Source: a virus. Taken from it: 64,000 nucleotides of DNA. Below, piece after piece: positions 1,182 through 34,140 of this stretch. How positions within the stretch are numbered: position 1 is the first letter of the stretch; each line of letters begins with the position of its first letter. The notes beneath the pieces were generated by a model. The model was given only the letters and a program-made list of their open reading frames with translations. It did no database searches and was not told where the DNA came from. The stretch is taken from positions 32,001-96,000 of IMG/VR virus record IMGVR_UViG_3300009529_000001; one strand, given 5' to 3'. The position numbers and the translations under genes are program-made.

Positions 1182-1413
1182 CATTATTAAAAAAGTCAAG
1201 CGACTTAAAGATAAAATATCAGAGTTGGAAACTGGTAAGAAAATTGCTGAGCACGAGATTGAGAAAATCCATAAAGAATTAGAAGAGGCAGATATAAAGC
1301 CTGAAAATCTTAAGGAAGAAATAGAAAAATTTAGTAAAGATATTAAAAAAATATCTAAGAAATTAGAGAAAGCTGTTAAGAATGCTGAACAAATTATTGA
1401 ACAGAATAAATAG
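1174..1413 (+). CDS. small coiled-coil protein, probably part of the split Rad50 module
   Basis: 79 aa heptad-rich, translationally coupled on both sides. Confidence 0.6.
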   Translation: MSDIIKKVKRLKDKISELETGKKIAEHEIEKIHKELEEADIKPENLKEEIEKFSKDIKKISKKLEKAVKNAEQIIEQNK

Positions 1414-2712: not shown

Positions 2713-3174
2713 ATGAAGGAAGCTGTATTATCAAAACAATTGCGTGACGACATTAAAGAATACTTTGACGATGATGTGCATATAAATCTCTTACATGACA
2801 TGAAAAGAACAGGGAAAAAGTTTTATGATTTTTATTTCCTCAAAAATGAAATATTTGTAGCGATTGAATTGAAGGTAGAAGCCGGAATAAGTTTTACTAT
2901 AAATAAAGTTAAACCACATCAACCAGGATTTTTAGATGAGGTAATGTGCCAGGGTGGATTTGCATTTTTTATGATATGTTTCTTCAATAAGAAAAGAATT
3001 TTTATAGTTCCTCCAGGGATGTGGGATTTTTTAGTGATAAAGTCTTTCGGAAGAAAAAGTATTGAATACGGAATGTTCAAACATAATTGTAGGTCGATTA
3101 AACGGAAGAAGATAGATGGTAAAACAAAATGGGACATTAAAAAACTTTGGAAAATGGTGAAAAAATGGCCTTAA
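2713..3174 (+). CDS. PD-(D/E)xK nuclease, RecU-like Holliday junction resolvase
   Basis: YDF...AIELK, VKPHQ, GGFAFFMI pattern. Confidence 0.7.
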   Translation: MKEAVLSKQLRDDIKEYFDDDVHINLLHDMKRTGKKFYDFYFLKNEIFVAIELKVEAGISFTINKVKPHQPGFLDEVMCQGGFAFFMICFFNKKRIFIVPPGMWDFLVIKSFGRKSIEYGMFKHNCRSIKRKKIDGKTKWDIKKLWKMVKKWP

Positions 3175-3458
3175 TAGATATTGATCCCAATTTTAATTAC
3201 CCTAAAATTACGGAAGAAATATGGCATTATGTATTCGGTAGAGACTGTGGAATATGTCAAAGGTGTGGCGGGAAAGGAGAGGAAGTTCATCACATTATCT
3301 TTAGAAGTCACGGCGTGAACAATGCGCCTAATAATTTAATACTTTTATGTGAAAGATGTCACAAAGTTAGAATACATAGAGATTATGAAATAGACCAAAA
3401 TACTTTAATGGTCAGAACAATAGCAAATGAAAAAGCGTTTAGGGAGGCGTTGTTGTGA
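3165..3458 (+). CDS. HNH endonuclease
   Basis: CQRC...EVHHII...NNLILLCERCH. Confidence 0.9.
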   Translation: MALIDIDPNFNYPKITEEIWHYVFGRDCGICQRCGGKGEEVHHIIFRSHGVNNAPNNLILLCERCHKVRIHRDYEIDQNTLMVRTIANEKAFREALL

Positions 3459-3566
3459 AAAATTACACTAATAAAGATTTTAAAAAAATTGATAAGAAAC
3501 GTCAAAAGGCAGTAACCAAAAAACGAAAGAAAAATCGTTTAGAAAAAAAGATTATTAAGAAATAAT

Positions 3567-3857
3567 ATGCCTACTAAAAATTGTTATTTTTGTAATGTAG
3601 AATTTAATTCATCTGAAGGAGATGAATTAGTTACATGTGATATCTGTGCGGGAATAATTTGTAGAATTGTCAATAGAAGCAAAAAGGTTAGAAAAAAGAT
3701 TATAAAGTCTTTGATTACTGATAACGATTTTATAAAAGAAATAGGTAAAAAACTATTTGAAACACCAATTGTTGATATCGGATTAGGAGGACCGGGCACT
3801 CTTGCCCAATGGTTTTGCGAGAAAAGGAAGAAAAAAGTTAAAAAAGGAACTTCGTAA
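3567..3857 (+). CDS. small zinc-finger protein
   Basis: CYFC...CDIC. Confidence 0.55.
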   Translation: MPTKNCYFCNVEFNSSEGDELVTCDICAGIICRIVNRSKKVRKKIIKSLITDNDFIKEIGKKLFETPIVDIGLGGPGTLAQWFCEKRKKKVKKGTS

Positions 3858-4470
3858 ATATATTGAAAAACATTTACCTTATATCCATTTTACAAATAAT
3901 AAAAGAGATGAATTAAATAATTATAGAGAAGATGCTGCTCAACATATAGTCCAAGAATTAATAAAATTATATCCTAAAAAATATAAATATACAGATTTTG
4001 ATTGGGTTACTCGTTCTGCAATCCGCCGTAAATCCATTGATATTACAAATAAATTCGGCAAAAAAGATAAAAGAGAAGTTAGCGAAAATACCAGATTTAA
4101 AATTAGAGATAAAAATACGGATAATTATGACGATAGTTTAGAATTACAAGATGATCTTTATTGTCATCGCGTTAATGAATCTATGAAAGATTGGGAAGAG
4201 AAAACAGTTAGAAAAAGAAAAATAGAATACATAGAAGATCTTGTTTACAAAATTACATATGGATTTTTAAAAGAGGAATTTAATGATTGGGATAGAGAAT
4301 ACCTTGATTCTTTGATATTTCTTTATAATTTAGGATATTCAAATTTTAGTAAAGATGACATATATGAATGTATGGGTTATGATGTTCAAGACAGGCTAAC
4401 ACTTAATAGTAAATTGGTTTTATTTAGGAATAGATTGAAGAAATGCTGGCCTGATAGGATTGTAATATGA
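3802..4470 (+). CDS. putative sigma-70-like transcription factor
   Basis: REDAAQ...WVTRSAIRRKSID resembles sigma region 2; C-terminal HTH-like segment. Confidence 0.45.
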   Translation: MPNGFARKGRKKLKKELRKYIEKHLPYIHFTNNKRDELNNYREDAAQHIVQELIKLYPKKYKYTDFDWVTRSAIRRKSIDITNKFGKKDKREVSENTRFKIRDKNTDNYDDSLELQDDLYCHRVNESMKDWEEKTVRKRKIEYIEDLVYKITYGFLKEEFNDWDREYLDSLIFLYNLGYSNFSKDDIYECMGYDVQDRLTLNSKLVLFRNRLKKCWPDRIVI

Positions 4471-5570
4471 ATATAGATTTTGATCCTGCCAAGATTTTAA
4501 TTTACAAAGAACAATTGGATAATATATACAAGGGAGATATTCCTTTACCTATTATGCTTGAAATAGATCCATGTAATTTTTGTAATTTTGGATGTGAATG
4601 GTGTAGTAGCGGACATTATGTTAGAAATGAAAAAGAAATTAAAAGCAAGATGATGATTGATGAAATTAGTTTTAGACACATTCTTGATTTTATGGATGCT
4701 ATAGATACAGTACAAGGAATTTATTGGTGTGGTGGTGGTGAACCTACATTAAATATTTACCTTAAAGAATTGATGACAATAACAAAGAAATTAGGGATTA
4801 AAAATTATATTACGACAAACGGATCTACATTGAAAGTGAAATATAAATATCTTGTCGATTTATGTGATTGGATTGCAGTAAGTGTAAATTCTGGATCAGA
4901 AGAACAATGGAAAAGAATTACAAAAACTAAAATAGAATATGGAAAATATTTGAATGGTCTTTATAATATGTGTCAATATAGAAAACATGGTGCTTTAAGA
5001 GATATGGAGATTAATTTTAAATTCTTTTTTGATCCTTTGTCGTATGTTGATATTGAAAATGCTTATGAACAAGCTATAGATCTTGGATTTACACATGTAA
5101 CTATTAAACCTGTAGATATGTTTGTTTATGAACGTGGAAAAGATAGAAAAAGGTTTGATGAAATTTGGCCTAATCACATTGTAGATAGTGTTAATGCGGC
5201 AATTAATAGAATCAAGGAAAGAAATAAAAGTAGTCCTAAAATCAAATTAGAATGTGGAAGTTTTTATGGAATGTTCAATGTAGATAAAAAAGAACATTTA
5301 AATTTTGATAAGTGTTGGACATCAATGATGGCTCCTGTATTTGGAGCGGATGGTTGGGTTCATCTTTGTTGTGTTAGAAGAGGAGAAAAAAAGTTAGTGA
5401 GATGGGATAATGGTGATCTTTTAGATTTTTGGAATTCAGATGAACATAAAAAAATGGTTTGGGGATTTGATCCTAAAGAAGAATGTCCTGTGCGTTGTAA
5501 GATGGGCATGTATAATCAGCTTTTCCAACAGATTTGGCTTGATAAAAAATTCAATGTAGGACATATCTAA
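4467..5570 (+). CDS. radical SAM enzyme with SPASM/twitch domain
   Basis: CNFGCEWC (CxxxCxxC), GGGEPT, TTNGS, C-terminal C...GxVxxCC...CxxxC. Confidence 0.9.
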   Translation: MNIDFDPAKILIYKEQLDNIYKGDIPLPIMLEIDPCNFCNFGCEWCSSGHYVRNEKEIKSKMMIDEISFRHILDFMDAIDTVQGIYWCGGGEPTLNIYLKELMTITKKLGIKNYITTNGSTLKVKYKYLVDLCDWIAVSVNSGSEEQWKRITKTKIEYGKYLNGLYNMCQYRKHGALRDMEINFKFFFDPLSYVDIENAYEQAIDLGFTHVTIKPVDMFVYERGKDRKRFDEIWPNHIVDSVNAAINRIKERNKSSPKIKLECGSFYGMFNVDKKEHLNFDKCWTSMMAPVFGADGWVHLCCVRRGEKKLVRWDNGDLLDFWNSDEHKKMVWGFDPKEECPVRCKMGMYNQLFQQIWLDKKFNVGHI

Positions 5571-6793
5571 TGAAAATTGGTTGGGTAAGATTAACGATGG
5601 CAACCGAATTGGATTATAATATTTCCAAGAACGGGCTAGGTGAAGAACGTCCTATGTTGTTTAAAGGATTTCTTGACAGAGGACACAAGGTTAAGCTTCT
5701 TACTCCAGTAAAGAAGAAAGATCAAAAAACATTACAAGCTGCAAAAAATGGAGATAGTTTTGAAAATTGTATTGTGGATAATTCTTGGTTAAAAAAATTA
5801 GAATATGATCCAAAGGGATTTGCAGATAATTGCGATGTATTAGTCATAGAAAATGGTCCTTTGAACTTTACCTTCATTGATCCTTTCTTTAAAATACCGC
5901 AAATTAGACGGGCGATTGAAATAATTAATAGATTTGAAGGATTAGTAATATTTTATCAGACTGATCCTTTATTACCGTTTCCATTTTGGCGGATGACAAT
6001 GGCGAAATATCCATGGAGTCATCCCAAAAATACTCCAAGAAAAACAGGAAAGGGATTAGAAACACACGGATGGGGTGATTTTGATGAGATATTTAAGAAT
6101 AAGAAAATTCTTGTAATAGGAAAGTCACCTAAACCTAACGAATTTGCTCGGGCAAATAATGGACCTAGATTTAGTTACAATCGTTTTCGTAAGAAAGGAT
6201 TAATGAAGTTTGATTATCTTCATACAGGATACAATAAATATTTTATGCCACATATCAAACCTGTATTTGAAAAAAAGAAAAAGGATTTAATATATGTAGG
6301 TTTTCCGAGAAGTAGAACTAATGCTTTTAAGAGATATTATGGAAATTATTTAGATAGAACACATGTTTATGGTCCTTGGGATTTAACATCAAGAATTGAT
6401 TTTCTTGAAAGATGTAGATTAGAGGGGATGAAATGGTATGGATTTATAGATGGTTTTCCAAATATAACCAAGGCTTATAGTAGATCAAAAATTAGTATAA
6501 ATCTCATGCCTGAAAAAGCACAAGAATTGGGATGGATCACAAGTAGAGTTTATGAAAGCGTATTTTCAGGATGTATAACATTAGGGGAAGAGAGAACATT
6601 TGGGATAGAAAAATGTGAACCAGCAGAGTTAATGATTGATACATTTAATTCTGATGTAATAATAGGAAAAATTTTAGATTATAGTAAACAAGAATATACT
6701 GATAAAATTAGTGAACAATATGGTATGGTTAGACATTTAAATTATAATTATATTGTCAAGAAATTTGAAAAATTGGTGAAAAAATATGGCTGA
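5570..6793 (+). CDS. T4 beta-glucosyltransferase (BGT)-like DNA glycosyltransferase
   Basis: Colinear matches to T4 BGT as recalled: DVLVIENGPLNF~DRLIVVNSSINF, YQTDPLLPF~LFTDIRLPF (catalytic Asp), DLIYVGFPRS~DVIYGGSFRS, WITSRVYE~FITLRVWE. Confidence 0.75.
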   Translation: MKIGWVRLTMATELDYNISKNGLGEERPMLFKGFLDRGHKVKLLTPVKKKDQKTLQAAKNGDSFENCIVDNSWLKKLEYDPKGFADNCDVLVIENGPLNFTFIDPFFKIPQIRRAIEIINRFEGLVIFYQTDPLLPFPFWRMTMAKYPWSHPKNTPRKTGKGLETHGWGDFDEIFKNKKILVIGKSPKPNEFARANNGPRFSYNRFRKKGLMKFDYLHTGYNKYFMPHIKPVFEKKKKDLIYVGFPRSRTNAFKRYYGNYLDRTHVYGPWDLTSRIDFLERCRLEGMKWYGFIDGFPNITKAYSRSKISINLMPEKAQELGWITSRVYESVFSGCITLGEERTFGIEKCEPAELMIDTFNSDVIIGKILDYSKQEYTDKISEQYGMVRHLNYNYIVKKFEKLVKKYG

Positions 6794-7706
6794 GAAAAAG
6801 ATTCTTTGTATAGCGGATGGCGGCATAGGCAATGTTGTACTAGCTACGCCGCTTGTAATAGCAATCAAAGAACTTTTTAAACGATCCCAGATTACTTTTG
6901 GTACTCGTCCCCCATGTTTACCTATTGTGAGTGGTTTAGTTGATCATATACTTGATGTGACAAAAGATGAATTTGAAAAATATTACGATATGGTTCTTTG
7001 TACTATATGGCATAGTTATTTTTTGAAAAGAAAAGATGAGATCAAATTTGATTATTTTGACAGTATAGAATATAAAGCTCCTCCTGTTACTCATGAAGTT
7101 GATTTAAATATGAGATTATTGGATTCTTTTGGATTTAAAAATAGACGTAATCCTAAACCATACTGTAATGAAAAATATTGTGATATGTATATTAATAAAA
7201 ATATTATCAATATTGGAATAGCAAATGGAAAAGCTGATGATGATAATTGGGAAAGAAAAAAATGGCCTCATTTGTATGAGTTTTTAAAATATTTAAGGAA
7301 GAATTTCAAAAAAGAATATTGTGTTTATTTGTTTGGCGGAGAGAGAGAAAAGAAAATTTTTAAGAAATTAGATCTAGAATACAATGAATATAATATAGCA
7401 GGAAAACTAGAGATTGATGAAATTGCATATCTCATGAAACAAATGGATATTAATATAGTCAATGATACAGGATTAGGACATGTTGCTGGAGCAGTAGGAG
7501 CAAAGACTTTAGTTCTTTGGGGTCCAACAAGTTTTAAAAAGAATAGGCACATTGGAGATGAAGTATATACTGTTGTTAGTGATGCGAATTGTATAGAGTG
7601 TCAAGGATCGGATAGATGGCATAAATGTAAAGAGTGGAGATGTATGGATAGATTTGTTCCTGAATTTGTATTCAAAAAAATGTATGAGTTAGTAGATATT
7701 CAATAA
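6786..7706 (+). CDS. glycosyltransferase family 9 (heptosyltransferase-like)
   Basis: GIGNVVLATP, KKWP, NDTGLGHVAGAVG, LWGPT. Confidence 0.85.
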   Translation: MAEKKILCIADGGIGNVVLATPLVIAIKELFKRSQITFGTRPPCLPIVSGLVDHILDVTKDEFEKYYDMVLCTIWHSYFLKRKDEIKFDYFDSIEYKAPPVTHEVDLNMRLLDSFGFKNRRNPKPYCNEKYCDMYINKNIINIGIANGKADDDNWERKKWPHLYEFLKYLRKNFKKEYCVYLFGGEREKKIFKKLDLEYNEYNIAGKLEIDEIAYLMKQMDINIVNDTGLGHVAGAVGAKTLVLWGPTSFKKNRHIGDEVYTVVSDANCIECQGSDRWHKCKEWRCMDRFVPEFVFKKMYELVDIQ

Positions 7707-7731
7707 ACTTTTTAAAGATAATCAATTATAC

Positions 7732-7760
7732 TTGCAAAATGATTTTCCTACCTTTATATT
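7732..7760 (+). promoter_or_regulatory. sigma70-type promoter TTGCAA-N17-TATATT
   Basis: Member of the repeated promoter family; intergenic. Confidence 0.7.
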
Positions 7761-7808
7761 ATAACTATGGATTAAGTTATGTAATAACAAATTAGAAGGG
7801 AGATAGGA

Positions 7809-8054
7809 ATGGCGAAACGCAAAAAAGATTCTAAAAAAATAGCTAGAAAAAAAGCTATAGAAAAAGCTTTATCTGACGGGCGCGAAACGGTAATTATCAA
7901 TGAAAGACCGTGCAGCGTGGAAATTATTAAAAACAGCAAGGGGTATACGTATGCGATGAAAGTTTATGTAGAAGATATTGCGGAGATGAAGAAGAGTGTT
8001 AAAGATCTTAATAGTCTCGATAAATCCATAAGGAAAACATTTGCAATTGACTAA
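7809..8054 (+). CDS. hypothetical protein
   Basis: ORF with SD, after promoter. Confidence 0.7.
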   Translation: MAKRKKDSKKIARKKAIEKALSDGRETVIINERPCSVEIIKNSKGYTYAMKVYVEDIAEMKKSVKDLNSLDKSIRKTFAID

Positions 8055-8103
8055 TTGTTAGTCAGTTTTTTAATGTATCGTTTTTTTAAAAGAGGAGGAA
8101 TTT

Positions 8104-8691
8104 ATGTCGAAGAAGAGTAAGAAGGAAAAGAAAGAAGCAAAGGAAAAGGAAAAAGAAGAGAAGACAAAGAAGAAGACAAAGAAGGAGCCAGAAGAGCGCA
8201 AGGAAGTCATTGTTAAGTGTACAAAAGCTGAACCGATTAGAAAACAGAATCTTGTTCCTCATACTGGTACAAGATTTAAGAAGGGTTCTGCTCGTCAGCT
8301 TGCGTTCGATATTATTGCAAAGGGCGCAAGAAAAGGGAAGGCTATTAGTGCAATTCGTGAGGAATTGAAGAATACACGTAAACCAGATGCTAAGTTCAAT
8401 CTTGATGCTGCTTATCTAAATTTTATAGTTGCATCACATCCGGAATTTTTTAAGGCTTATAACGATGATACGCTTGAGCTAGTAAAAGAGCCTCAAATTG
8501 ATGAGGAAGCTGCAAAGAAGGCTGATGAGGCTGCAAAGGAAAAGAAGAAGAAGGCTGCCGAAGCACGTGAAAAGCGTGAAAAAGCCGTTAAGGGTGAAAA
8601 GAAGAAGAAGGCCGCAAAGCCTGATAACGATGAAGATGAAGACGACGAAGACGACGAAGACGACGAAGACGACGAAGATGAAGATGATTAA
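8104..8691 (+). CDS. highly charged protein: Lys/Glu-rich arms and a poly-Asp/Glu C-terminal tail
   Basis: Strong SD GAGGAGG; (GACGACGAA)n tail; followed by a terminator. Confidence 0.8.
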   Translation: MSKKSKKEKKEAKEKEKEEKTKKKTKKEPEERKEVIVKCTKAEPIRKQNLVPHTGTRFKKGSARQLAFDIIAKGARKGKAISAIREELKNTRKPDAKFNLDAAYLNFIVASHPEFFKAYNDDTLELVKEPQIDEEAAKKADEAAKEKKKKAAEAREKREKAVKGEKKKKAAKPDNDEDEDDEDDEDDEDDEDEDD

Positions 8692-8720
8692 TGCAGCATA
8701 AAAATTGGTTAAGTTGTTTT

Positions 8721-8754
8721 AAATAAGGGGATTAAAAATCCCCTTATTTTTTTA
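8721..8754 (+). terminator. intrinsic terminator
   Basis: AAATAAGGGGATT-AAA-AATCCCCTTATTT followed by a T run. Confidence 0.8.
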
Positions 8755-8764
8755 TAAAAAGGTG

Positions 8765-8795
8765 TTGCAAAAAAATAAGGGGATGTTATTATTAT
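8765..8795 (+). promoter_or_regulatory. promoter (TTGCAA ... TATTAT)
   Basis: Same family as 7732; spacing 16. Confidence 0.5.
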
Positions 8796-8846
8796 AAGCC
8801 GTTAAAATTCAAAGGTTTATGGATTATTTTTTTTGAAGGGAAAAGT

Positions 8847-9515
8847 ATGTCACCCCTCTCGAAAGAACTTCGAGAAACAAAGAAGACGTGGTACAAAGTA
8901 TGGATCAGAAATAAACAAAAGATATTGAATATAGTAAGAAAATTGAAAAATAAGTATAAATTCTATATAATGTCTGAAGAAGAAATATTAACGACTGTAG
9001 AATTTAAATTTTTTGAATTATTTTATAAAACATATGAAAATGATAATCAATATCTTCGATTCATGTTTATAATCACTAAGAATATTATAAATGATTTACA
9101 AAGACGTGAATATCGTTTTGTGAACAAACACAGATATGATGCTGCTAAAATATGTGCTCGATTTAGGATAGTAACAAACGATATAATTGATGATAATTAC
9201 GTAAGAATAACAAATGAGATGGCCGTCGATAATAAGTTTGAAAATAATTGTGAAGAAAAATATATTTATCAAGAACTTTTAAAACAAGTTGAAAATATAT
9301 TAGAAAGACCAGTTTATATAGAAATTTTCCATTTAATTTTAAATGATTATAAAGCTAAAGAAATTAGTAAAATTGTAGGAATGTCAACAGGATTCATAGG
9401 ACAAGTAAAACGACAAGTAATTTTTCCTGCCATCAAAGAAGTTCTCAATATTCCAGATAAAAGGTATGAATGGTTATCTGCAAGCGGACGTATTTATAGC
9501 CCAAGGAGGAAATAG
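8847..9515 (+). CDS. sigma-70/ECF-like factor
   Basis: Region-2-like FMFIITKNIINDLQRR; region-4 HTH YKAKEISKIVGMSTGFIGQVK. Confidence 0.65.
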   Translation: MSPLSKELRETKKTWYKVWIRNKQKILNIVRKLKNKYKFYIMSEEEILTTVEFKFFELFYKTYENDNQYLRFMFIITKNIINDLQRREYRFVNKHRYDAAKICARFRIVTNDIIDDNYVRITNEMAVDNKFENNCEEKYIYQELLKQVENILERPVYIEIFHLILNDYKAKEISKIVGMSTGFIGQVKRQVIFPAIKEVLNIPDKRYEWLSASGRIYSPRRK

Positions 9516-9516
9516 T

Positions 9517-9924
9517 ATGGAAGAGAAATTTGGATGTTATGCAAAGGAATTGTTGAGTGATGTAGATGATGAAGAAGGTGGAGGTGAGATTCCAACATTA
9601 AGATTCCACGATATATTAGCATTAGCAGTAGAACTTCAAAAAGCTAAGAACAAAACTTATAAAGATTCATGGAAAAAGAATGGAGAATTCTTGTCGGCAT
9701 TTGAAAATGTTTCTAGAAAATATGATAGAATACATAACGTTGTTATAGATTATGTAGAAAATAGTGCACCTTTACCAAAGGGTGACGCTTCTATAGCTCA
9801 AGGATTAATGGATCTTCTTGTATATGCTGGTTTATGGCTTACATTAGTTGCAGAAAAAAGACCGAATGAATTTATAGAACTTTTGGAAAGTATTGTTAAA
9901 AGTATTGAAGAAACATCAAAGTAA
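9517..9924 (+). CDS. nucleotide-modification-associated domain 1 (Nmad1/DUF1599)-like, MazG-fold protein
   Basis: KNKTYKDSW...RKYDRI...DLLVYA pattern; SD AGGAGG. Confidence 0.7.
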   Translation: MEEKFGCYAKELLSDVDDEEGGGEIPTLRFHDILALAVELQKAKNKTYKDSWKKNGEFLSAFENVSRKYDRIHNVVIDYVENSAPLPKGDASIAQGLMDLLVYAGLWLTLVAEKRPNEFIELLESIVKSIEETSK

Positions 9925-10003
9925 TTTATAATTGATTTTACATTTGATGTAACACAAGGCATTATAAAGGGTAGTAAATGTTTAACTTTTTAGGAGGAAT
10001 TTA

Positions 10004-10288
10004 ATGGCTTTTCTAAGAAAACCTTGTATTATTAAGTATAGACCTGATCCAGCTAAAACGATTGAAGATAATTTGAAAACTGTATTTGGTTCTATAGCTG
10101 GCTGTGTTGATGATAATGATTTTGAGATAACTTTAGAAATGACGAATGTTGAAGAATTTGATGCTGAAGAAATAGAAAATCTTATAAATGATTCAATGGA
10201 ACTTGCCGAACAAGTAGAAAAATTAGATCTCAAAACGCCTCATAGTGTTACTCCTGACGGTAAACCACTTTTTACAGAAAAGGGATAA
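10004..10288 (+). CDS. hypothetical acidic protein
   Basis: ORF with SD AGGAGG. Confidence 0.7.
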   Translation: MAFLRKPCIIKYRPDPAKTIEDNLKTVFGSIAGCVDDNDFEITLEMTNVEEFDAEEIENLINDSMELAEQVEKLDLKTPHSVTPDGKPLFTEKG

Positions 10289-10291
10289 ATC

Positions 10292-10462
10292 ATGGCCGAC
10301 AAAAAGGAAGTTGTTAAAGGTTTCTGCATGAAATGCAAGCAGAAGAGGAAGATGGTCGAAACAGAAGAAGTGACCATGAAAAATGGTCGTCCTGCTCTTA
10401 AAGGTAAGTGCAAGTTTTGTGGAACAAAGATGTTCAAGATACTTTCGATTAAGAAGGACTAA
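10292..10462 (+). CDS. DUF5679-like zinc-ribbon protein (56 aa, not in the ORF track)
   Basis: GFCMKCKQKRKM...MKNGRPALKGKCKFCGTKMFKI. Confidence 0.85.
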   Translation: MADKKEVVKGFCMKCKQKRKMVETEEVTMKNGRPALKGKCKFCGTKMFKILSIKKD

Positions 10463-10464
10463 TA

Positions 10465-11412
10465 ATGAAGGTAGCGATCATTGACGGAAATGGTTTGTCA
10501 TTCCGCATTTTCGCTCAATTTAAAGACTCCCCGACAGGTTTGTTAAAAAACAATGTTGGACTTCCGACTACAGTAATTTTTGGATTTTTAAGGTCACTTT
10601 TAAAACTTGCAGAACGTATAAAATTTGATAGTTCTATTGTTACTTGGGATGTGACAGGAAGTAAGTTTAGAAAGAAAGTATATCCTAAATACAAAGCACA
10701 TCGCAAACATAAAGACATGAAAGATTATTATGAGGAGCTTGATGCTTGTCGAGACTATATGAAAGTGTTTGGTTTCAACCAAGCTGTAGCAAGAGGAATA
10801 GAAGCGGATGACGTTATAGCTTGGTTATCTAGGAAATTAAAGAAAGATGGACATAGTCCCATAATTGTTTCGGACGATAAGGATTTTTATCAATGCGCAC
10901 GTGGTGTAAGAATTTTTAGACCGATTAAAAACGAATTTGTAAATACAGAATGGGTTAAAAATGAATTTGGAATCCATCCTAAACATATGGCATTACTTCA
11001 AGCTTTAACAGGTGATAAGGTCGATAATATACCAGGGATCAGAGGGATTGGTCCTAAAACTGCGTCAAAACTTATTAACGAATTCGGAACAACAGTTGAT
11101 AAGTTGGTTGATAATTGTAATCATAAGCGTTGGGGTTCGATTTTAAAAGAAGAACGTGAAAATTTAAAAACTTATCTTCAACTCACTACACTAAGAAGAC
11201 AGTTGAAGGAATATAAAAAATGGGAAAGGAAAAGATTAAGGAAATGTTTGAAGGAAGCTTTTGTAAGAAAACATCCGAAGTTGAAGAAAGTTATTCAGTT
11301 GAAGGAAGATTTGGAACTGGAAACTATTGATATAGTTTTTTTGCTTAGGAGAATAGGTATCCAGGTTTTAGGCAAAAATGGAAAACAAAAAAGACCGGAG
11401 ATAATAGTATGA
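10465..11412 (+). CDS. 5'-3' exonuclease / flap endonuclease (PolI N-terminal, T4 RNase H-like)
   Basis: IIDGN, YKAHR, EADDVIA, SDDKDF, GDKVDNIPGIRGIGPKTA. Confidence 0.95.
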   Translation: MKVAIIDGNGLSFRIFAQFKDSPTGLLKNNVGLPTTVIFGFLRSLLKLAERIKFDSSIVTWDVTGSKFRKKVYPKYKAHRKHKDMKDYYEELDACRDYMKVFGFNQAVARGIEADDVIAWLSRKLKKDGHSPIIVSDDKDFYQCARGVRIFRPIKNEFVNTEWVKNEFGIHPKHMALLQALTGDKVDNIPGIRGIGPKTASKLINEFGTTVDKLVDNCNHKRWGSILKEERENLKTYLQLTTLRRQLKEYKKWERKRLRKCLKEAFVRKHPKLKKVIQLKEDLELETIDIVFLLRRIGIQVLGKNGKQKRPEIIV

Positions 11413-12134
11413 GTATTGATCTATATGATACAAAAATTCTTGTGACGGGTGGAACAGGTACTTTAGGAAATGAGCTCAAGAACTATATTCCTAATGCTAT
11501 GTATCCTTCAAGAGAAGAGTTTGATATTCTATGGCCTACAATGAGATTAAGAGATTTTTTATGGAAAGAAAAAGTTGCAATGATTATTCATTGCGCTGCG
11601 ATAATTAATGACAAAATTGATAAAGAAGATCCTGAGAGTATGACTCTTGCTTTTAATACAAATGCAGGAGCAGTAGCCAGTCTATGTCATGCTTGTCGTA
11701 AAACGGATACACATTTATTCTATATCTCGACAGACTATGTATTTGATGGGAAGGGATCGAAGTATAAAGAAACTGATTGTCCTAATCCTCAGAATTTTTA
11801 TGCAATGACAAAATTACTTGGAGAAGCATATGTGAGATTTGTAGGCGGTCATGTGATAAGAACATCGTTTTGCCATAAAGACAAATGGCTATTCGATGGA
11901 GCATATACAAACGTATATTCCAGTAGAGATACGGTAGATGTGATCGCTCCGTTAATTGCAAAGGTAATAGCAAGAACTGATAAATGGGGACAAATCCATG
12001 TAGGAACAGAACGTAAAAGTTTTTATGATCTTGCTGTTAAAATTAAACCAGACGTAAAACGTATTAGAAATAAAGCAAATAAGGATACTTCTTTTGATTT
12101 ATCGTTGATGTACAAAGTATTGGAGGAAGAATAA
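11409..12134 (+). CDS. rmlD: dTDP-4-dehydrorhamnose reductase-like SDR
   Basis: GGTGTLG, HCAA, ISTDYVFDG, YAMTKLLGE. Confidence 0.85.
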   Translation: MSIDLYDTKILVTGGTGTLGNELKNYIPNAMYPSREEFDILWPTMRLRDFLWKEKVAMIIHCAAIINDKIDKEDPESMTLAFNTNAGAVASLCHACRKTDTHLFYISTDYVFDGKGSKYKETDCPNPQNFYAMTKLLGEAYVRFVGGHVIRTSFCHKDKWLFDGAYTNVYSSRDTVDVIAPLIAKVIARTDKWGQIHVGTERKSFYDLAVKIKPDVKRIRNKANKDTSFDLSLMYKVLEEE

Positions 12135-12745
12135 TGGAATTTGAGTATTTAAAGCACTTGAAAGAACGGGGAGAAGATCCCAAAGGATATGGTAAAACAA
12201 ATTATGAAGATTTTTTAAAGCAGGGTAACTATGTATTTAAAGGAAAAATTGAAGGTGTAGAAATAAGAAAACTTGAAAAGTTTGTTGATGATCGTGGATT
12301 TCTTAGCGAAATTTGTAGATCAGATTGGGAAGAAATAATTAAACTTGCTCCTGGAGGAAGAGATGATATTTTAGGTAACCTTAATCAAGTTTACATCGTA
12401 GGTAATTGGAGCAAAGGAACTGTAAGAGCATTTCATAAACATGAAAAACTTGTAGACTTTTTTGTGATTGTTAGAGGAGTAGCAAAATTTATATTATTTG
12501 ATGATCGTCCTGATTCCCCAACATTTGGGATATTACAACAAATTATTTCAGAAGCAGGTGATCTTAAAATGATTACCGTTCCTTCTGGAGTTTTTCATGG
12601 TTGGCAAAGTCTTTGTGTTGAAACTCTTTTAGTCAGCGTAGCAAATGATCTTTATATGGGATATAATAAAAAAGAATACCTTGATGAACATCGTATTCCG
12701 TATGATATATTTGGGAAAAATATTTGGGAAGTGGAATATAAATGA
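12134..12745 (+). CDS. rmlC: dTDP-4-dehydrorhamnose 3,5-epimerase-like cupin
   Basis: DDRGF, VRAFHKH, DDRPDSPT, VPSGVFHGW. Confidence 0.85.
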   Translation: MEFEYLKHLKERGEDPKGYGKTNYEDFLKQGNYVFKGKIEGVEIRKLEKFVDDRGFLSEICRSDWEEIIKLAPGGRDDILGNLNQVYIVGNWSKGTVRAFHKHEKLVDFFVIVRGVAKFILFDDRPDSPTFGILQQIISEAGDLKMITVPSGVFHGWQSLCVETLLVSVANDLYMGYNKKEYLDEHRIPYDIFGKNIWEVEYK

Positions 12746-12909
12746 AAATGACTTTATTAAATTTTGTGATTTTGATAGTTGTTCTATTTTTATGGTGGGC
12801 TAGTTTCAATGCAGCTAATTGGATAGCAGGACGTTTAGGAGTATATATAACTTTTGGACTTTGGATAGTTGGCGGCATTCTTATTGTTGTATATAAAAAG
12901 GATGAATAA
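12742..12909 (+). CDS. small two-TM membrane protein (55 aa, not in the ORF track)
   Basis: MKMTLLNFVILIVVLFLWW...; ATGA-type overlap. Confidence 0.55.
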   Translation: MKMTLLNFVILIVVLFLWWASFNAANWIAGRLGVYITFGLWIVGGILIVVYKKDE

Positions 12910-12910
12910 A

Positions 12911-13234
12911 ATGAGTAAATTGACGGCATTTATGCTTATTCTTTTTGTATCTGGATTGCTTCTGTTTTTTGTTGGTCTTGGCGTTTCTCGTCCAACAGCT
13001 AAATTTAAACGTGGGGATTTAGTAAGAATAAAAATAAGTGAAGACCAAAAAATTGGGATGATAATAGCACCTGCTTGGTATTTTTCTTCTGGTGTGATTT
13101 ATGATGTAAGAATAACTGTTAAAAGAACAGAAATTCCTTATAATGAATTAGGTAGTGGTGGACCATTAAATGAAACAGAATATCAGATAGTACAATTTGT
13201 AGAATACGAATTAGAAAAGGTAGAATACAAATGA
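12911..13234 (+). CDS. membrane-anchored hypothetical protein
   Basis: N-terminal TM segment, then FKRGDLV SH3/KOW-like segment. Confidence 0.65.
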   Translation: MSKLTAFMLILFVSGLLLFFVGLGVSRPTAKFKRGDLVRIKISEDQKIGMIIAPAWYFSSGVIYDVRITVKRTEIPYNELGSGGPLNETEYQIVQFVEYELEKVEYK

Positions 13235-14268
13235 ATTGGCTATTAATTTCCGGAGGAGCAGGATATGTGGGGACTTTGCTCCTAAAACGTATTGTTAATA
13301 AATACGATAGAGTCGCTGTATTGGATCCTTGCATATTTGGAACAAATGGCATAGAAAAATATACCAATGTTGTGATATTCAAACGTGGATTTAAGGATTT
13401 TCAAAAAAGAATAAGTGGTTCAAAAACTTGTGCAGGCATAATTCACTTAGGTGGGTTAAGCAATGACCCTATGGTAGACAATAATCCTGAAGCCAATATG
13501 CGAATCAATGTAGAGCTAACTAAGCTGCTTACAAAATGGGCCGTTAAAAATAAAATAAAGAAGTTTTTGTATGCAAGTAGTGCTTCTGTATATGGATTCA
13601 ATGATACTAAAGTTTTGACAGAAGAAGATGAACTTAATCCACAAAGTGCATATGGTAGAAGTAAAGTTGAATGCGAAAAATTTTTAGAAGATTGGGAAGA
13701 AATCAATCCTGTTATGGTTCGTAAAGGAACTTTGATGGGCGTAAGTGATAGAATGCGTTTTGATCTTGTAGTAAATACCTTATGTTGGTACGCTTATTTT
13801 GAAGGGAAAATTAGTTTATTTTCAGGAGGAGAAACATGGCGTCCCATGGTAAATGTTAAAGACGCTGCAAAATTATATGATTGGCTATTTCATCATAAAG
13901 AATATGAAAAATTTTCTGGACAAAAAATAAATTTAGTTCATAAAAATTATAGAGTAAGTGAATTAGGTTTATTTATGAAATCTTTAATAGAAAATGACAA
14001 TAAGTATCCAAAACAAATAGAAATTCATTCTGCTTATGCTATTGAAGAACCACGGAGTTATCAGATCAGTAAGGATAAACTCACTAAATTAGGATTTTTG
14101 ACTTATTTTGGTTTAAGAGAAACTGTAAAAGAAATATGGCATAATCTCAATGATGGAAAGTATAAGATTAATGATCCAATCTATTGGAGTGCAAGGTGGT
14201 TGGATCATTGTAAAAAAGTTTGTAATATTATTGGAAGGAAGTTTGATCCATTAGAAACTTATGTTTAA
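13231..14268 (+). CDS. NAD-dependent sugar-nucleotide epimerase/dehydratase (extended SDR)
   Basis: GGAGYVG, ASSASVYG, YGRSK, RMRFDLVVN. Confidence 0.9.
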   Translation: MNWLLISGGAGYVGTLLLKRIVNKYDRVAVLDPCIFGTNGIEKYTNVVIFKRGFKDFQKRISGSKTCAGIIHLGGLSNDPMVDNNPEANMRINVELTKLLTKWAVKNKIKKFLYASSASVYGFNDTKVLTEEDELNPQSAYGRSKVECEKFLEDWEEINPVMVRKGTLMGVSDRMRFDLVVNTLCWYAYFEGKISLFSGGETWRPMVNVKDAAKLYDWLFHHKEYEKFSGQKINLVHKNYRVSELGLFMKSLIENDNKYPKQIEIHSAYAIEEPRSYQISKDKLTKLGFLTYFGLRETVKEIWHNLNDGKYKINDPIYWSARWLDHCKKVCNIIGRKFDPLETYV

Positions 14269-14584
14269 AACAAAGACAAGATTAATTAATACTCTTGGAA
14301 GAGTTTATTACGCTTTTTATTTGAAAGGTGGTAGAAAAAATCCTAAAAGAAAAGATATAGAAGAAAATATATATAAAACAAAATATCCTGATTCTTTGAA
14401 ATCATATCAAAAACTTTTTTCTCGATTATTTATACATATTAATGAAAAATTGACACAAAAATCTTATAAGAAAATAATAAAAATATTAAAAGAAGAAGAT
14501 AAATTAACCGAGAAAAAAAGGCGCGGTTATATTAAGTGCTGGCGTTTAATGGAGAAATATTATGGAGGTTATTCAAGCGAATAG
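14261..14584 (+). CDS. hypothetical basic protein
   Basis: Coupled ORF. Confidence 0.55.
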   Translation: MFKTKTRLINTLGRVYYAFYLKGGRKNPKRKDIEENIYKTKYPDSLKSYQKLFSRLFIHINEKLTQKSYKKIIKILKEEDKLTEKKRRGYIKCWRLMEKYYGGYSSE

Positions 14585-16847
14585 TATTAATGATGGATTA
14601 GCAAAAGTTCTTGAAGGTATAGTAGGTAGAGGGAATAAAGTTGATATAAAAGGTAAAGAAACTCTAGAACTTCATCCTTGTTTAATAGAATTTGATAAAC
14701 CTCTTAAACGTACATTGCTTTATCCAGGAAGGGGTAATAATCCTTTCGCTAGTCTTGCTGAAACTTTATGGATTTTAGCAGGACGAAATGACGTTGATTG
14801 GCTAAAATTCTTTTTGCCAAGAGCGCCTGATTGGAGCGATGATGGTGAAGTTTGGAGAGCAGGTTATGGACCTCGATTGAGGCAATGGAAAGCAGAGGGT
14901 GAATGTTCTAGTGAATGGACGTTCATTGATCAAATTAAATATGTCTACGATACACTTAAAAATGATCTAATGAGCAGACAAGCAATAATATCTTTATGGG
15001 ATCCTGGTGAAGAATGTACTGTGGGAAAAACATTAGATTGTCCTTGTTCCAATTGGCTACATTTTATGGTAAGGAGAAAATATAGGCCAGAATTAGCAGA
15101 TATAAAAGACAAACCTGAAACTTGGACTTTCCATCTAGATTGTGAATTTGTGATCAGATCAAATGATGCAATTTGGGGATTCTGTCTTTCCGGTGCTACT
15201 AAAATAAAATTATTGGATGGAACTGTTAAACCTATAAAAGATCTTGTTGATAAACAGTTTTGGGTTTATTCAAAAAATAATGATAAAGAAATAGTACCCG
15301 GAAAAGTTATAAAATGTAAAAAAACAGGAAAGAAAAAAATATTAAAAATAACTTTTAGTGATGGAAGCTTCGTAAGATGTTCTAAAAACCATAAGTTTTT
15401 ATTAAGAGATTGGAAATATAGAAAAGCAAAAAATCTAAAAGTAGGTGATTCAATTGATAGTGTATATTTTAGATTGAATAAAAAAGGTTATGAACAATAT
15501 AACAACGGTGATGGCTGGTTTAATACGCATATAATGGCAAATATTCTGTCGGAAAAGGGAGAATTAGATAGTAATAATAATTTTCATATAACTCACCATA
15601 AAGATTTTGTTAAACGAAATAATAATCCTGAAAATCTTTTATGGCTGGGGAATTATGATCATCATAGTTTTCATGCTGAATTATTGCGTAAAATGTGGCG
15701 GGATCCTAAATATAGAAAATCAAGAAAGAAAGTTATAAAAAAACTTTTAGCTTTTAATAGAAAACAATGGAAAAATCCTGAATATAGAAGAGAAAGACGT
15801 AAAATCTTAAGTGAAAGAATGATCCAATGGTGGGAAGAAGAAAGATTTGATACTGAATTACATAAAGAAGCTGCTAAAAATAATTTAATCAATTACAATA
15901 AATCTTTTAAAGGGCGTAATAAATCTAGAGAGATTGGACAAACATTTGGAACAGATAATTTTAAGAAATATCACAAAACGGGCGGACATTTAAAAACTTT
16001 AGCAAAAATTCATAGAGAAAAATTAAACAATACTCCAAAAATTAAATTTAAACGCACTAGAACTAGAATCCTTAATGTTTTTAATGAATTGAAAAAAAGA
16101 TTCTTAGAATTTAATGAAGAAAATTATTTTAATTATAAACCAATGGGTAATCCTGGATGGAAAAAAGTTTTTGAATATTTTAAAGATTTGGATGAAATAA
16201 ATGAATGCTTAGAAAATTATAATCACATAGTTACTTCTATAAAATCTGACGGTTATGAAGATACTTATGATTTGGAAGTAGAAGATTATCACAATTTTGT
16301 ATTGGAAAATGGTGTTATCGTTCACAATTCTAATATTAATTTTTATGAATGGAGTGTATTACAAGAAATATTAGCAAGTGTATTAGGTATAGAAATTGGG
16401 ACATTTTATTATTATGTATCAAGTATACATGTTTACAAACATCATTGGAAACGTGTTAAAAAATTATTGGAAAATAAAGAAAAATTTGTAGACAATCTTC
16501 CTGAATTTAGATTTTGTAGAGGGCAAATTAATCTTGATAAATATTTGGAAGACTGTGAAATGTTATGTAAATATGTAGAAGAAATAATAATAAATGATAA
16601 GAAAAAACTTAAATATTTTATACCTTTTCATGGGGAGAGAGGATCTACTTTAAACGATATTGCTTGTTTATTGTCAGTTTTTGTAAAAATGAAACAAAAC
16701 GATAATGCTTGGAGAAAAACTTTGCATTGTATTCCATTTTCTGATTTAAAAGTATCTTGTTATTACTATGCAATGAAAAATATTTTTAAATACAAAGATT
16801 ATACAATTCAAGAAGCAATAGAAAAGGTGCAAAAAAATGAGTATTAA
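14562..16847 (+). CDS. thymidylate-synthase-family enzyme, probable dUMP hydroxymethylase, intein-containing
   Basis: YGPRLR, SRQAII, catalytic PC, spliced motif RSNDAIWGF|SNINFYEWS, SIHVY. Confidence 0.8.
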   Translation: MEVIQANSINDGLAKVLEGIVGRGNKVDIKGKETLELHPCLIEFDKPLKRTLLYPGRGNNPFASLAETLWILAGRNDVDWLKFFLPRAPDWSDDGEVWRAGYGPRLRQWKAEGECSSEWTFIDQIKYVYDTLKNDLMSRQAIISLWDPGEECTVGKTLDCPCSNWLHFMVRRKYRPELADIKDKPETWTFHLDCEFVIRSNDAIWGFCLSGATKIKLLDGTVKPIKDLVDKQFWVYSKNNDKEIVPGKVIKCKKTGKKKILKITFSDGSFVRCSKNHKFLLRDWKYRKAKNLKVGDSIDSVYFRLNKKGYEQYNNGDGWFNTHIMANILSEKGELDSNNNFHITHHKDFVKRNNNPENLLWLGNYDHHSFHAELLRKMWRDPKYRKSRKKVIKKLLAFNRKQWKNPEYRRERRKILSERMIQWWEEERFDTELHKEAAKNNLINYNKSFKGRNKSREIGQTFGTDNFKKYHKTGGHLKTLAKIHREKLNNTPKIKFKRTRTRILNVFNELKKRFLEFNEENYFNYKPMGNPGWKKVFEYFKDLDEINECLENYNHIVTSIKSDGYEDTYDLEVEDYHNFVLENGVIVHNSNINFYEWSVLQEILASVLGIEIGTFYYYVSSIHVYKHHWKRVKKLLENKEKFVDNLPEFRFCRGQINLDKYLEDCEMLCKYVEEIIINDKKKLKYFIPFHGERGSTLNDIACLLSVFVKMKQNDNAWRKTLHCIPFSDLKVSCYYYAMKNIFKYKDYTIQEAIEKVQKNEY
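15183..16328 (+). mobile_element. intein (382 aa) with HNH homing endonuclease
   Basis: Starts CLSGATKI, block B CSKNHKF, HHKDFVKRNNNPENL, ends YDLEV..HNF..NGVIVHN followed by Ser. Confidence 0.92.
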
Positions 16848-33939: not shown

Positions 33940-34140
33940 ATGCAAGTAATGTATGATACGATTAACAAAAAACTTGATTCAATTGTAGCTGGTGTAGTTG
34001 AGATTAAAAATGAATTAGCACAACGTGATGCAACCGAAGAAGAACTTAAAAACGTTATTTCTCAGTTAACTGATGTAGATAGCAATTTGTGGGATATTGA
34101 AGAATATGTTGAGTATTTTGCCAAAAAGAAAGGAAGGTAA
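33940..34140 (+). CDS. hypothetical coiled-coil protein
   Basis: SD after promoter. Confidence 0.65.
   Translation: MQVMYDTINKKLDSIVAGVVEIKNELAQRDATEEELKNVISQLTDVDSNLWDIEEYVEYFAKKKGR

Follow-up and report, generated by a model that had tools for sequence, protein, structure and literature searches.

A predicted route to glycosylated hydroxymethyluracil in the DNA of an uncultured phage

Our analysis suggests that the DNA of G000, an uncultured phage with a 110-kb genome, probably bears sugar-decorated hydroxymethyluracil (hmU), since the phage encodes both a predicted maker of hydroxymethyl-dUMP, replacing dTMP, and a genuine homolog of the T4 DNA glucosyltransferase. The explanation we favour, and consider reasonably probable, is a two-stage pyrimidine hypermodification of the T4 type that is built on uracil. 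We found no report of glycosylated hmU in any virus in the literature. All coordinates refer to the window, the 64,000-nucleotide stretch of the G000 genome that was analysed.

An intein-containing, predicted uracil-type hydroxymethylase

The gene of the putative dUMP hydroxymethylase, a thymidylate synthase (TS) homolog on the plus strand, is interrupted by an intein, as the earlier note on this DNA had proposed. The N-extein (14562–15182, aa 1–207; 34% identity to SPO1 gp29 by tblastn, 2e-27) contains Cys146 and Asp143, and is followed by a 382-residue intein (15183–16328, aa 208–589; Pfam Intein_splicing 8.5e-20) with a weak HNH-like match (HNH_3, 0.006, under cut-off). The C-extein (16329–16847) bears Asn177 and a long C-terminal tail. 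The intein boundaries read C...HN/S, giving the spliced junction ...RSNDAIWGF/SNINFYEWS, and the homolog in the phage contig L041 is intein-less and continuous across exactly this junction. Outside the 64-kb window, a catalytically dead TS paralog is also present.

Alignment of the spliced protein with E. coli ThyA, SPO1 gp29 and T4 gp42 revealed a signature of Cys146, Asp143 (Leu in ThyA) and retained Asp169 and Asn177. The previously noted Asn in place of the Asp of T4 dCMP hydroxymethylase is real: the column of Asn177 in E. coli ThyA is occupied by the second N of SNIN, as in SPO1 gp29. Cys146 is the catalytic residue, and Asn177 the one tied to uracil specificity. In a published signature scheme, an acidic residue at Leu143 denotes a hydroxymethyl rather than a methyl product, and retention of Asp169 denotes an enzyme other than a 5hoC synthase (PMC13326640). 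In blastp, residues 16–378 aligned with residues 16–382 of SPO1 gp29, C-terminal tail included, at 142 bits, compared with 130 for the Kuttervirus homolog, 104 for Yuavirus, 62 for E. coli ThyA, 34 for RB69 gp48 and 33 for T4 gp42. Groups already known for hmU-derived DNA dominated the 609 phage matches of the enzyme. The suspected likeness to dUMP hydroxymethylases is borne out by residues 143, 169 and 177 together with the full-length SPO1 gp29 match, and a uracil-type enzyme with hmdUMP as its predicted product is supported.

Alternatively, the TS homolog could be a normal thymidylate synthase or an enzyme specific for cytosine, in which case the acceptor would be hmC, 5hoC or none. Homologs are annotated 'thymidylate synthase' in databases, the best PDB sequence match is the CMP hydroxymethylase MilA, and a small maximum-likelihood tree of TS homologs, the phylogeny suggested earlier, did not resolve their groupings, although the blastp scores favour SPO1 gp29 over ThyA and T4 gp42. 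We give this alternative very little credence, because the enzyme has Asn rather than Asp at position 177, Asp rather than Leu at 143 and Asp rather than Asn at 169, and its full-length match to SPO1 gp29 scores far above its matches to T4 gp42 and RB69 gp48.

A distant T4 BGT homolog in a conserved gene module

Profile and structure comparisons place the 407-residue GT-B glycosyltransferase encoded at 5570–6793 (plus strand) in the T4 beta-glucosyltransferase (BGT) family of DNA beta-glucosyltransferases, which we take to be CAZy GT63, and we predict that it glycosylates hmU in DNA. In Foldseek, all six of its best PDB matches were T4 BGT (E 9e-12 to 1e-10), and its fold is nearest to BGT across the whole length, with a Z margin over GT4 enzymes of only about 3. 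A profile of 50 family sequences found T4 BGT (1bgt) at E 3.6e-19, the next PDB match lying at 0.16, and hhalign of the family against T4 BGT gave 98.4% (E 9e-15, 323 columns). T4 BGT was not reached from the single sequence or a 12-sequence profile, and Pfam T4-Gluco-transf (PF09198) matched neither the protein at E<=5 nor the six-frame genome translation at E<=10. In both profile and structure comparisons, FYQTD132PLLPF aligned with YYLFTD100IRLPF of T4 BGT, and Asp100, Arg269 and Glu272 of BGT aligned with Asp132, Arg326 and Glu329, which are conserved in 38, 49 and 30 members, respectively, of the 50-sequence family alignment. Foldseek, hhalign and the family profile hence uphold the colinear match to T4 BGT, catalytic Asp included, that had been read from the sequence. 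Together, these data support a genuine T4 BGT homolog rather than a generic GT-B enzyme, one that, judged by its sequence, is a distant branch and not a T4-like orthologue. BGT fold and family alone would not prove a DNA acceptor, and the role on hmU-DNA is predicted from genomic context. The family is small but real, with 281 clusters among 1.84 billion representatives, one cultured phage included; tblastn detected no homolog at E<=1e-5 in 50,697 phage records, a set that may or may not include SP-15, YerA41 and Carin-5.

Translational coupling links the BGT-like gene to two genes absent from the earlier note, both on the plus strand. The upstream gene (4467–5570) encodes a radical SAM enzyme whose C-terminal auxiliary domain is Cys-rich (twitch/SPASM-like); it is a candidate sugar-tailoring enzyme with only four distant matches in the 50,697 phage records (tblastn, E<=1e-5). 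Its fold is nearest to the sugar-acting DesII and BlsE and also resembles SkfB; its top 50 fold matches do not include spore photoproduct lyase, with which the literature compares M6 gp53 (PMC8989533). The downstream gene (6786–7706, 8-nt overlap) encodes a heptosyltransferase-like GT9 enzyme (Pfam Glyco_transf_9, 3.4e-20), which may perform a second sugar transfer; no homologs were detected in the contigs G001, G002, L037 or L041. A conserved ORF of 222 aa (3802–4470, plus strand) overlaps the radical SAM gene by 4 nt and has equally placed homologs in L037 and L041; it has no match in Pfam, PHROG or NCBIfam, and a weak ESM Atlas lead to sigma-70 region 2. Further downstream on this strand, the ORF at 9466–9924, earlier called Nmad1-like, could not be confirmed as such: it has no Pfam match even at E<=5 and a weak PHROG 'replication protein' match, and the sole support is a weak pairwise match to gp110 of phage Molly, which is annotated as Nmad1 (E 0.018). 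A 5'-3' exonuclease (10465–11412; Pfam 5_3_exonuc_N, 1.2e-35) is a replication gene within the module, with homologs downstream of the glycosyltransferase in L037 and L041, and a class II (B12) ribonucleotide reductase (RNR) is encoded at 16837–18891 (plus strand; RNR_Alpha 2.2e-26, RNR-II_ins_dom).

This arrangement recurs across phage contigs. The glycosyltransferase lies 4–9 kb from a uracil-type hydroxymethylase in four contigs (G000, G001, G002 and L041), even though G001 and G002 have only about 10 genes in common with G000. The radical SAM gene is found just upstream of the glycosyltransferase in G000, G001, L037 and L041, and homologs of both occur on equal-sized contigs in five further cases. 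The module is always located among replication genes (5'-3' exonuclease, ligase, PolIII alpha, RecA), and a further radical SAM gene, of the B12-binding kind, is present in relatives. "Glycosylated hmU DNA" is the best reading because a uracil-type hydroxymethylase and a genuine BGT homolog are linked across several unrelated phages.

Linker-borne sugars are known on the thymidine hypermodifications of phages SP-15, YerA41 and Carin-5 (PMC12686479). By analogy, the uracil C5 substituent could first be given a carbon or phosphate linker, for instance through the radical SAM enzyme or aided by the HMUDK_hel protein described below, so that sugars, including a uronic acid, would sit on the linker and not directly on the hmU hydroxyl. 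Strict coupling of the radical SAM gene to the glycosyltransferase gene, the extra B12-binding enzyme in relatives and an NDP-sugar dehydrogenase in G000 are in line with such chemistry. We nonetheless think it highly unlikely, as BGT-type enzymes work directly on the 5-CH2OH group, the radical SAM fold points to sugar-acting enzymes rather than to spore photoproduct lyase, and the searched phage records yielded no homolog of the glycosyltransferase and few of the radical SAM enzyme.

Sugar-nucleotide genes and an HMUDK_hel operon

Between the module and the hydroxymethylase, the plus strand encodes an RmlD-like short SDR (11409–12134, 241 aa; RmlD_sub_bind 2.2e-31; 105 bits against TIGR01214, under its cut-off of 224), an RmlC-like cupin of the sugar 3,5-epimerase family (12134–12745; dTDP_sugar_isom 9e-11) and an SDR NDP-sugar epimerase/dehydratase (13231–14268; Epimerase 1.3e-25; GalE and heptose epimerase matches under cut-off). 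While the Pfam matches of these previously listed enzymes are real, all three fall below NCBIfam equivalog cut-offs. The block is accessory, since the syntenic relative L041 lacks it and it was undetected in G001 and G002, and the rhamnose-like sugar proposed earlier is not supported; rhamnose as the transferred sugar is only a guess.

A minus-strand operon begins with a divergent viral GT-A enzyme (59937–60863, GT2-like; no Pfam match, ESM Atlas features 0.97, structure TM 0.59–0.68 to viral GT2 clusters). It is followed by a stand-alone HMUDK_hel/aGPT-Pplase1-type protein of the ViI gp160 type (58999–59937; phrog_2396), whose earlier assignment holds firmly (PF18723, 1.9e-60, spanning 276/281 profile positions). 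Next come a short-form NDP-sugar (UDP-glucose-type) dehydrogenase (58157–58996; UDPG_MGDP_dh 1.2e-17, TIGR03026 2.7e-41) and two GT4-type glycosyltransferases (56257–58160; Pfam Glycos_transf_1), both with ~31% identical homologs in G002. The operon therefore joins HMUDK_hel to three glycosyltransferases and a sugar dehydrogenase, and HMUDK_hel shows translational coupling to glycosyltransferases. HMUDK_hel occurs in 490 phage records, largely in the same groups as the hydroxymethylase, and is a marker of hmU-DNA phages.

A large sugar-tailoring cluster on the plus strand (46195–56267) encodes GT2, GT1, FkbM and other methyltransferases, HAD, cupin, an NTP-transferase/kinase fusion, a TylF methyltransferase and a sulfotransferase-methyltransferase. 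Its link to DNA is at most putative, which counts against our overall reading. The phage could have plain hmU DNA like SPO1, with the BGT-like enzyme and the other glycosyltransferases modifying virion proteins, glycans of the host envelope or small molecules. Its seven glycosyltransferases, with methyl- and sulfotransferases, resemble a polysaccharide or protein-glycan toolkit. Such a target would agree with the modest Z margin over GT4 enzymes, and with the finding that ~65% of contigs with phage GT-A/GT-B matches have no nearby base-modification enzyme (Pyle et al. 2024). Against this, T4 BGT is the sole significant PDB match by profile, the glycosyltransferase sits among replication genes and near a hydroxymethylase in four dissimilar phages, and the hmU-DNA marker lies inside a glycosyltransferase operon, so that we regard a non-DNA target as distinctly unlikely.

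Predicted pathway and relation to known systems

Sequence, profile and predicted-fold evidence backs the enzyme identities and their conserved linkage, and G000 appears to lack the kinase/ADDT and TET routes. No P-loop 5-hmdU DNA kinase was matched at E<=1 in G000, G001, G002 or Molly, using a single Kuttervirus kinase query with no positive control, and neither ADDT (PF18724, which we take to be the former aGPT-Pplase2) nor a TET/JBP thymine dioxygenase (PF12851) was matched at E<=1. The dCMP deaminase and dTTPase named in the earlier note were likewise not recognised in G000. Full thymine replacement is uncertain, because neither these two enzymes (the latter of MazG type) nor a thymidylate or dNMP kinase is recognisable; no dCTPase was recognised in the annotated ORFs.

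Beyond this, we infer that DNA is the acceptor and hmU the base modified, along with the sugar, the sequence of steps and how far thymine is replaced. The most likely outcome is hmU DNA that is O-glycosylated after replication. Before replication, the spliced TS homolog would turn dUMP, supplied by the phage dUTPase and class II RNR, into 5-hydroxymethyl-dUMP, and hmdUTP would replace dTTP, partly or fully, in DNA synthesis. After replication, the BGT-family enzyme would flip hmU from the duplex and move the sugar of an NDP-sugar onto the 5-CH2OH group, with Asp132 as catalytic base, like Asp100 in T4 BGT. The coupled twitch-type radical SAM enzyme and GT9 would then tailor or extend the sugar, probably joined by the HMUDK_hel operon with its GT-A, dehydrogenase and two GT4 enzymes. 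Such a modification would probably serve to protect the phage against host restriction and further defences that target DNA.

The same two-stage logic, with a TS-family hydroxymethylase acting on the mononucleotide and a GT-B enzyme on DNA, operates in T4 with gp42 and BGT (PDB 1bgt/1j39/1qkj; glucosyl-hmC DNA). The G000 glycosyltransferase aligns the catalytic Asp and UDP-binding Arg/Glu of BGT; however, it is only 16–18% identical and missed by PF09198, the hydroxymethylase is long and uracil-type (Asn177, SPO1 gp29-like) rather than dCMP-type, and a radical SAM partner, GT9 and further glycosyltransferases are added. The enzyme shares full-length similarity and an identical active-site signature with gp29 of the Bacillus phage SPO1, which has hmU DNA, but differs in its intein and its linkage to a DNA-glycosyltransferase homolog; to our knowledge, SPO1 leaves its hmU undecorated. 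Phages ViI, M6, PhiW-14, SP10 and PaMx11 (5-HMUDK kinase and ADDT/aGPT-Pplase2, with or without PLP, radical SAM and FAD enzymes) also start from hmU made by a homologous hydroxymethylase, and ViI-type systems share the gp160-type HMUDK_hel protein. In G000, by contrast, ADDT is unmatched, the predicted adduct is a sugar rather than an amino acid or amine, and the radical SAM enzyme is of the DesII/BlsE/SkfB kind, unlike M6 gp53. Kinetoplastid base J (beta-D-glucosyl-hmU; JBP1/2 and JGT) belongs to the same predicted product class, O-glycosylated hmU in DNA, but there hmU arises by oxidation of T in DNA by the TET/JBP dioxygenase, and JGT is a GT-A enzyme whereas the G000 enzyme is a BGT-like GT-B.

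In the cultured Maribacter phage Molly (and Colly), gp100–gp103 are a UDP-Glc dehydrogenase, an epimerase, a 'beta glucosyl transferase' and a TS homolog. This is the same gene pair: a BGT-family glycosyltransferase (hhalign 99.2%) immediately precedes the nearest hydroxymethylase homolog from a cultured phage (37% identity to that of G000, Asn177/Asp143). The two glycosyltransferases are only 23% identical, and Molly has no radical SAM homolog and PolA where G000 has PolIII alpha; DNA modification is not discussed in the Molly paper. The RB69/DLP3 5-hydroxy-dCMP synthase with arabinosyltransferases and the TET-dependent glycosyl-5hmC pathways (Pyle et al. 2024) likewise use a TS homolog or dioxygenase to make a hydroxyl acceptor, on which phage glycosyltransferases build mono- to oligosaccharides in DNA. 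Those pathways act on cytosine (D169N/N177D, or methyltransferase with TET), whereas G000 has Asp169, Asn177 and no TET match. Since GT-B genes adjoining TS homologs were already surveyed in that study, and given the Molly gene pair and the linker sugars of SP-15, YerA41 and Carin-5, the earlier note's claim of a new pathway was too strong in its novelty, while its hmU glycosylation stands as the best reading. The G000 scheme is a new variant on the T4 scheme, with known precedent for the gene pair.

More speculatively, the radical SAM enzyme and BGT-family glycosyltransferase could form a dedicated module that equips hmU in DNA with a sugar tailored by radical chemistry (deoxygenated, decarboxylated or C-methylated), with stand-alone HMUDK_hel as the hmU-recognising subunit of a GT-A/GT4 operon extending it to a methylated, even sulfated, oligosaccharide. 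We consider this combination rather unlikely, and are aware of no earlier case in which a radical SAM enzyme modifies the sugar of a glycan linked to DNA, nor of any DNA glycan that is sulfated.

Our prediction is directly testable because the family includes a cultured phage. If the chemistry is confirmed, it would mean that a virus makes a base-J-like nucleobase (glycosyl-hmU) by T4 logic (TS-family hydroxymethylase and BGT-family glycosyltransferase) and not by kinetoplastid logic (dioxygenase and GT-A). It would add to the phage thymidine hypermodifications known so far (amino acids, amines and linker-borne sugars), document a radical SAM enzyme acting together with a DNA glycosyltransferase, and provide new hmU-specific DNA glycosyltransferases of use for hmU mapping. 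It would also bear on restriction evasion by such phages and on virome sequencing bias.

The glycosyltransferase and its kinship with T4 BGT

Judged from its sequence and predicted fold, the 407-residue product of the gene at 5570–6793 is a deep branch of the T4 beta-glucosyltransferase (BGT) family. Single-sequence searches with this glycosyltransferase (GT) gave no matches in Pfam, PHROGs, NCBIfam or, by phmmer, the PDB; tblastn found none among 50,697 phage records, a 12-sequence profile found none in the PDB, and Pfam's T4 BGT model did not match the GT. A word-indexed search of 5.8 billion proteins yielded 12 relatives, none of them named. An AlphaFold2 model built on these 12 sequences (pLDDT 86, pTM 0.88) was compared with the PDB by Foldseek, where the best six matches were T4 BGT (E 9e-12 to 1e-10), with T4 alpha-glucosyltransferase next. 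Since this margin at the level of the fold was modest, we sought proof at the level of sequence.

When 1.84 billion cluster representatives were searched exhaustively with HMMER, 281 relatives emerged (38 at E ≤ 1e-30), and a 50-sequence family alignment was drawn from these. T4 BGT was the sole significant match of its profile in the PDB (E 3.6e-19; runner-up 0.16), and hhalign aligned the family with T4 BGT over 323 columns with a probability of 98.4% (E 9e-15), compared with 7% for an earlier, shallow alignment of the GT. The homology is visible only through the fold and the 50-sequence profile. The catalytic base of T4 BGT (YYLFTD100IRLPF) pairs with FYQTD132PLLPF in the GT, and the UDP-binding residues R269 and E272 pair with R326 and E329; within the family alignment, D132 is conserved in 38 of 50 sequences, R249 and R326 in 49 each, and E329 in 30. 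Profile, hhalign and aligned residues therefore show that the colinear match to T4 BGT described in the earlier note is real.

A predicted hydroxymethylase, its linkage to the GT and its genome setting

The thymidylate synthase (TS) homolog at 14562–16847 is a 761-residue ORF containing a 382-residue intein (residues 208–589), which leaves a spliced protein of 379 residues. The intein has the termini Cys...His-Asn, followed by Ser, and matches Pfam Intein_splicing at 8.5e-20; in L041, a metagenomic contig with a GT relative, the homolog has no intein and its sequence is uninterrupted across the predicted splice junction. At the diagnostic positions of Lee et al. 2026 (PMC13326640; E. coli ThyA numbering), the spliced protein has the catalytic Cys146, carries Asp at Leu143, the signature of hydroxymethylation rather than methylation, and keeps Asp169, which rules out a 5-hydroxy-dCMP synthase. 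At position 177 it has Asn, indicating specificity for uracil rather than cytosine. This residue lies nine positions past Asp169, as it does in SPO1 gp29 and in the Kuttervirus, Yuavirus and Maribacter phage Molly enzymes; compared with ThyA and T4 gp42, all of these have one residue inserted in a loop.

Similarity scores follow the same pattern. The closest of the enzymes compared was SPO1 gp29, annotated as a dUMP hydroxymethylase (142 bits, full length including the C-terminal tail), followed by those of Kuttervirus (130 bits) and Yuavirus (104 bits), E. coli ThyA (62 bits), RB69 gp48 (34 bits) and T4 gp42 (33 bits), and most of the 609 phage matches fall in ViI-like, M6-like and SPO1-like phages. 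A small maximum-likelihood tree of 11 sequences had long branches and no resolution, so the assignment to the dUMP hydroxymethylases relies on the signature residues and the similarity scores. On this basis we predict a uracil-type (dUMP) hydroxymethylase, in agreement with the earlier note, which had seen Asn in place of Asp and a likeness to such enzymes.

Gene context for most GT homologs comes from five loci together with contigs of the same sizes. The GT and a uracil-type hydroxymethylase are separated by ~9 kb in the studied phage (G000), ~4 kb in a 140-kb virus with direct terminal repeats (G001), ~5 kb in a 96-kb virus fragment (G002) and ~4 kb in L041, a contig of 49 kb placed by binning in a Bacteroidales MAG; all four linked hydroxymethylases carry Asn177. 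The fifth locus, an 8-kb metagenome contig (L037), stops short of the expected hydroxymethylase position. G001 and G002 share only ~10 genes with G000, and the linkage is therefore not simply a matter of whole-genome common ancestry. In the loci with usable context, the GT module always lies amid replication and repair genes. L041 is syntenic with 234–16847, in the order SbcD, RecU, the ORF corresponding to that at 3802, radical SAM, B12-radical SAM, BGT-like GT, two small ORFs, 5'-3' exonuclease, ligase and hydroxymethylase. The locus (CAZJYD010000014.1, 14999–32258, from an uncultured Bacteroidales MAG) also carries genes for TnpB and an MT-A70 methyltransferase. Synteny between G000 and a contig of this origin hints at a Bacteroidota host.

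G000 is a 109,578-bp IMG/VR virus record, of which the window covers bases 32001–96000, with direct terminal repeats of 123 bp and a completeness rating of 100%, encoding DnaB, an intein-split PolIII alpha, RecA, dUTPase, primase, a UvrD-like helicase, class II RNR and large terminase. None of 50,697 phage records proved to be a near relative when 20 kb of the window was compared with them by megablast. GC content is ~30%, but 0.38–0.43 at 34000–42000; this stretch has many short ORFs, and no tRNA genes were found there or in the rest of the window. A promoter scan gave a signal no better than shuffled sequence. Outside the window, a second TS paralog of 372 residues lies between DnaB and PolIII alpha (G000:C1:22412–23530, or L011:2412–3530; phrog_5131, 6e-24). 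Asn replaces its catalytic Cys146, and R166, D169, H207 and Y209 are missing; judged by these residues, its TS fold appears catalytically dead. PolIII alpha itself (G000:C1:23797–27584, or L011:3797–7584) is encoded in two overlapping ORFs, the first ending in an Intein_splicing/Hint segment and the second containing the HHH_6 domain, a layout that suggests a naturally split intein.

The radical SAM partner and other sugar genes

The radical SAM gene at 4467–5570 overlaps the GT start by 1 base and the upstream ORF at 3802 by 4. Its homologs adjoin the GT in G001 (53% identity), L037 and L041, and five of the nine close homologs are on contigs of the same size as those carrying GT homologs. 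Matches in NCBIfam were generic and all below threshold, and the best folds, DesII, BlsE and SkfB, were tied. Because of this tie, a role for the enzyme in tailoring the donor sugar, or the sugar once bound to DNA, is no more than a plausible lead. We saw no likeness to spore photoproduct lyase, the enzyme with which M6 gp53 has been compared (PMC8989533). In L037 (1896–3284) and L041 (6601–7992), an additional B12-binding radical SAM gene lies between the twitch-type radical SAM and BGT-like genes; G000 lacks it, and there the GT is followed by a GT9 gene instead.

The RmlD-like, RmlC-like and SDR genes at 11409–14268 are genuine by family matches, yet all score under the NCBIfam equivalog cut-offs, and G001, G002 and L041 yielded no homologs. 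The genes named in the earlier note thus stand, while its rhamnose-like sugar is a guess. A further sugar cluster at 46195–56267 encodes GT2, GT1, three methyltransferases, a HAD phosphatase, a cupin, an NTP-transferase/kinase fusion and a sulfotransferase-methyltransferase fusion. Two sulfotransferase-family genes are present (1978–2712 and 54963–56267, one fused to a methyltransferase domain), with FkbM- and TylF-type methyltransferases alongside in this 10-kb cluster.

Alternative routes and known systems

A translationally coupled five-gene operon on the minus strand (60863–56257) encodes a divergent, viral GT-A, HMUDK_hel, an NDP-sugar dehydrogenase and two GT4 enzymes. The HMUDK_hel protein is stand-alone, and its match at 1.9e-60 confirms the HMUDK_hel/aGPT-Pplase1 gene reported at 58999. 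Homologs occur in 490 phage records, largely in the same groups as the hydroxymethylase; some are sporadically labelled aGPT-Pplase1, and one of them, Shigella phage Ag3 orf00160, suggests a protein of the ViI gp160 type. In M6 lysates the first transfer step did not require the corresponding paralog, gp55 (PMC8989533).

We found in G000 no ADDT (aGPT-Pplase2), no match to the one Kuttervirus 5-hmdU kinase used as query, and no TET/JBP, making both an amino-acid route and a dioxygenase route unlikely; HMUDK_hel, a putative recognition protein for 5-hydroxymethyluracil (hmU), is embedded among glycosyltransferases instead. A search of G000 for dCMP deaminase, thymidylate kinase and MazG-type dTTPase found none of them, dUTPase being the only such nucleotide-pool enzyme recognised.

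A cultured counterpart is Maribacter phage Molly, in which gp100–gp103 (L014:8300–13059) consecutively encode a UDP-glucose dehydrogenase, an epimerase, a 'beta glucosyl transferase' and a hydroxymethylase. The Molly GT belongs to the same family as the GT studied here (hhalign 99.2%), and its hydroxymethylase is the nearest cultured homolog (37% identity), with Asn177 and Asp143; DNA modification is not a topic of the Molly paper. In ~25,000 contigs matching phage GT-A or GT-B enzymes, Pyle et al. 2024 found a TS homolog neighbouring 28% of GT-B contigs, framed mainly in terms of cytosine pathways, and Lee et al. described glycosylated 5-hydroxycytosine. In SP-15, YerA41 and Carin-5, thymidine bears sugars via a linker (PMC12686479). 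Base J is the only glycosyl-hmU in the literature covered, and our full-text search retrieved no account of native phage DNA containing O-glycosylated hmU.

The observation in the earlier note is sound as a whole, except for the Nmad1 identity of 9466–9924, which was not borne out. Glycosylated hmU is the best available interpretation, but an inferential one. The scheme in G000 varies a known strategy and is not new in kind; what most sets it apart is that the GT has an obligate radical SAM partner and that HMUDK_hel is encoded inside a GT operon.
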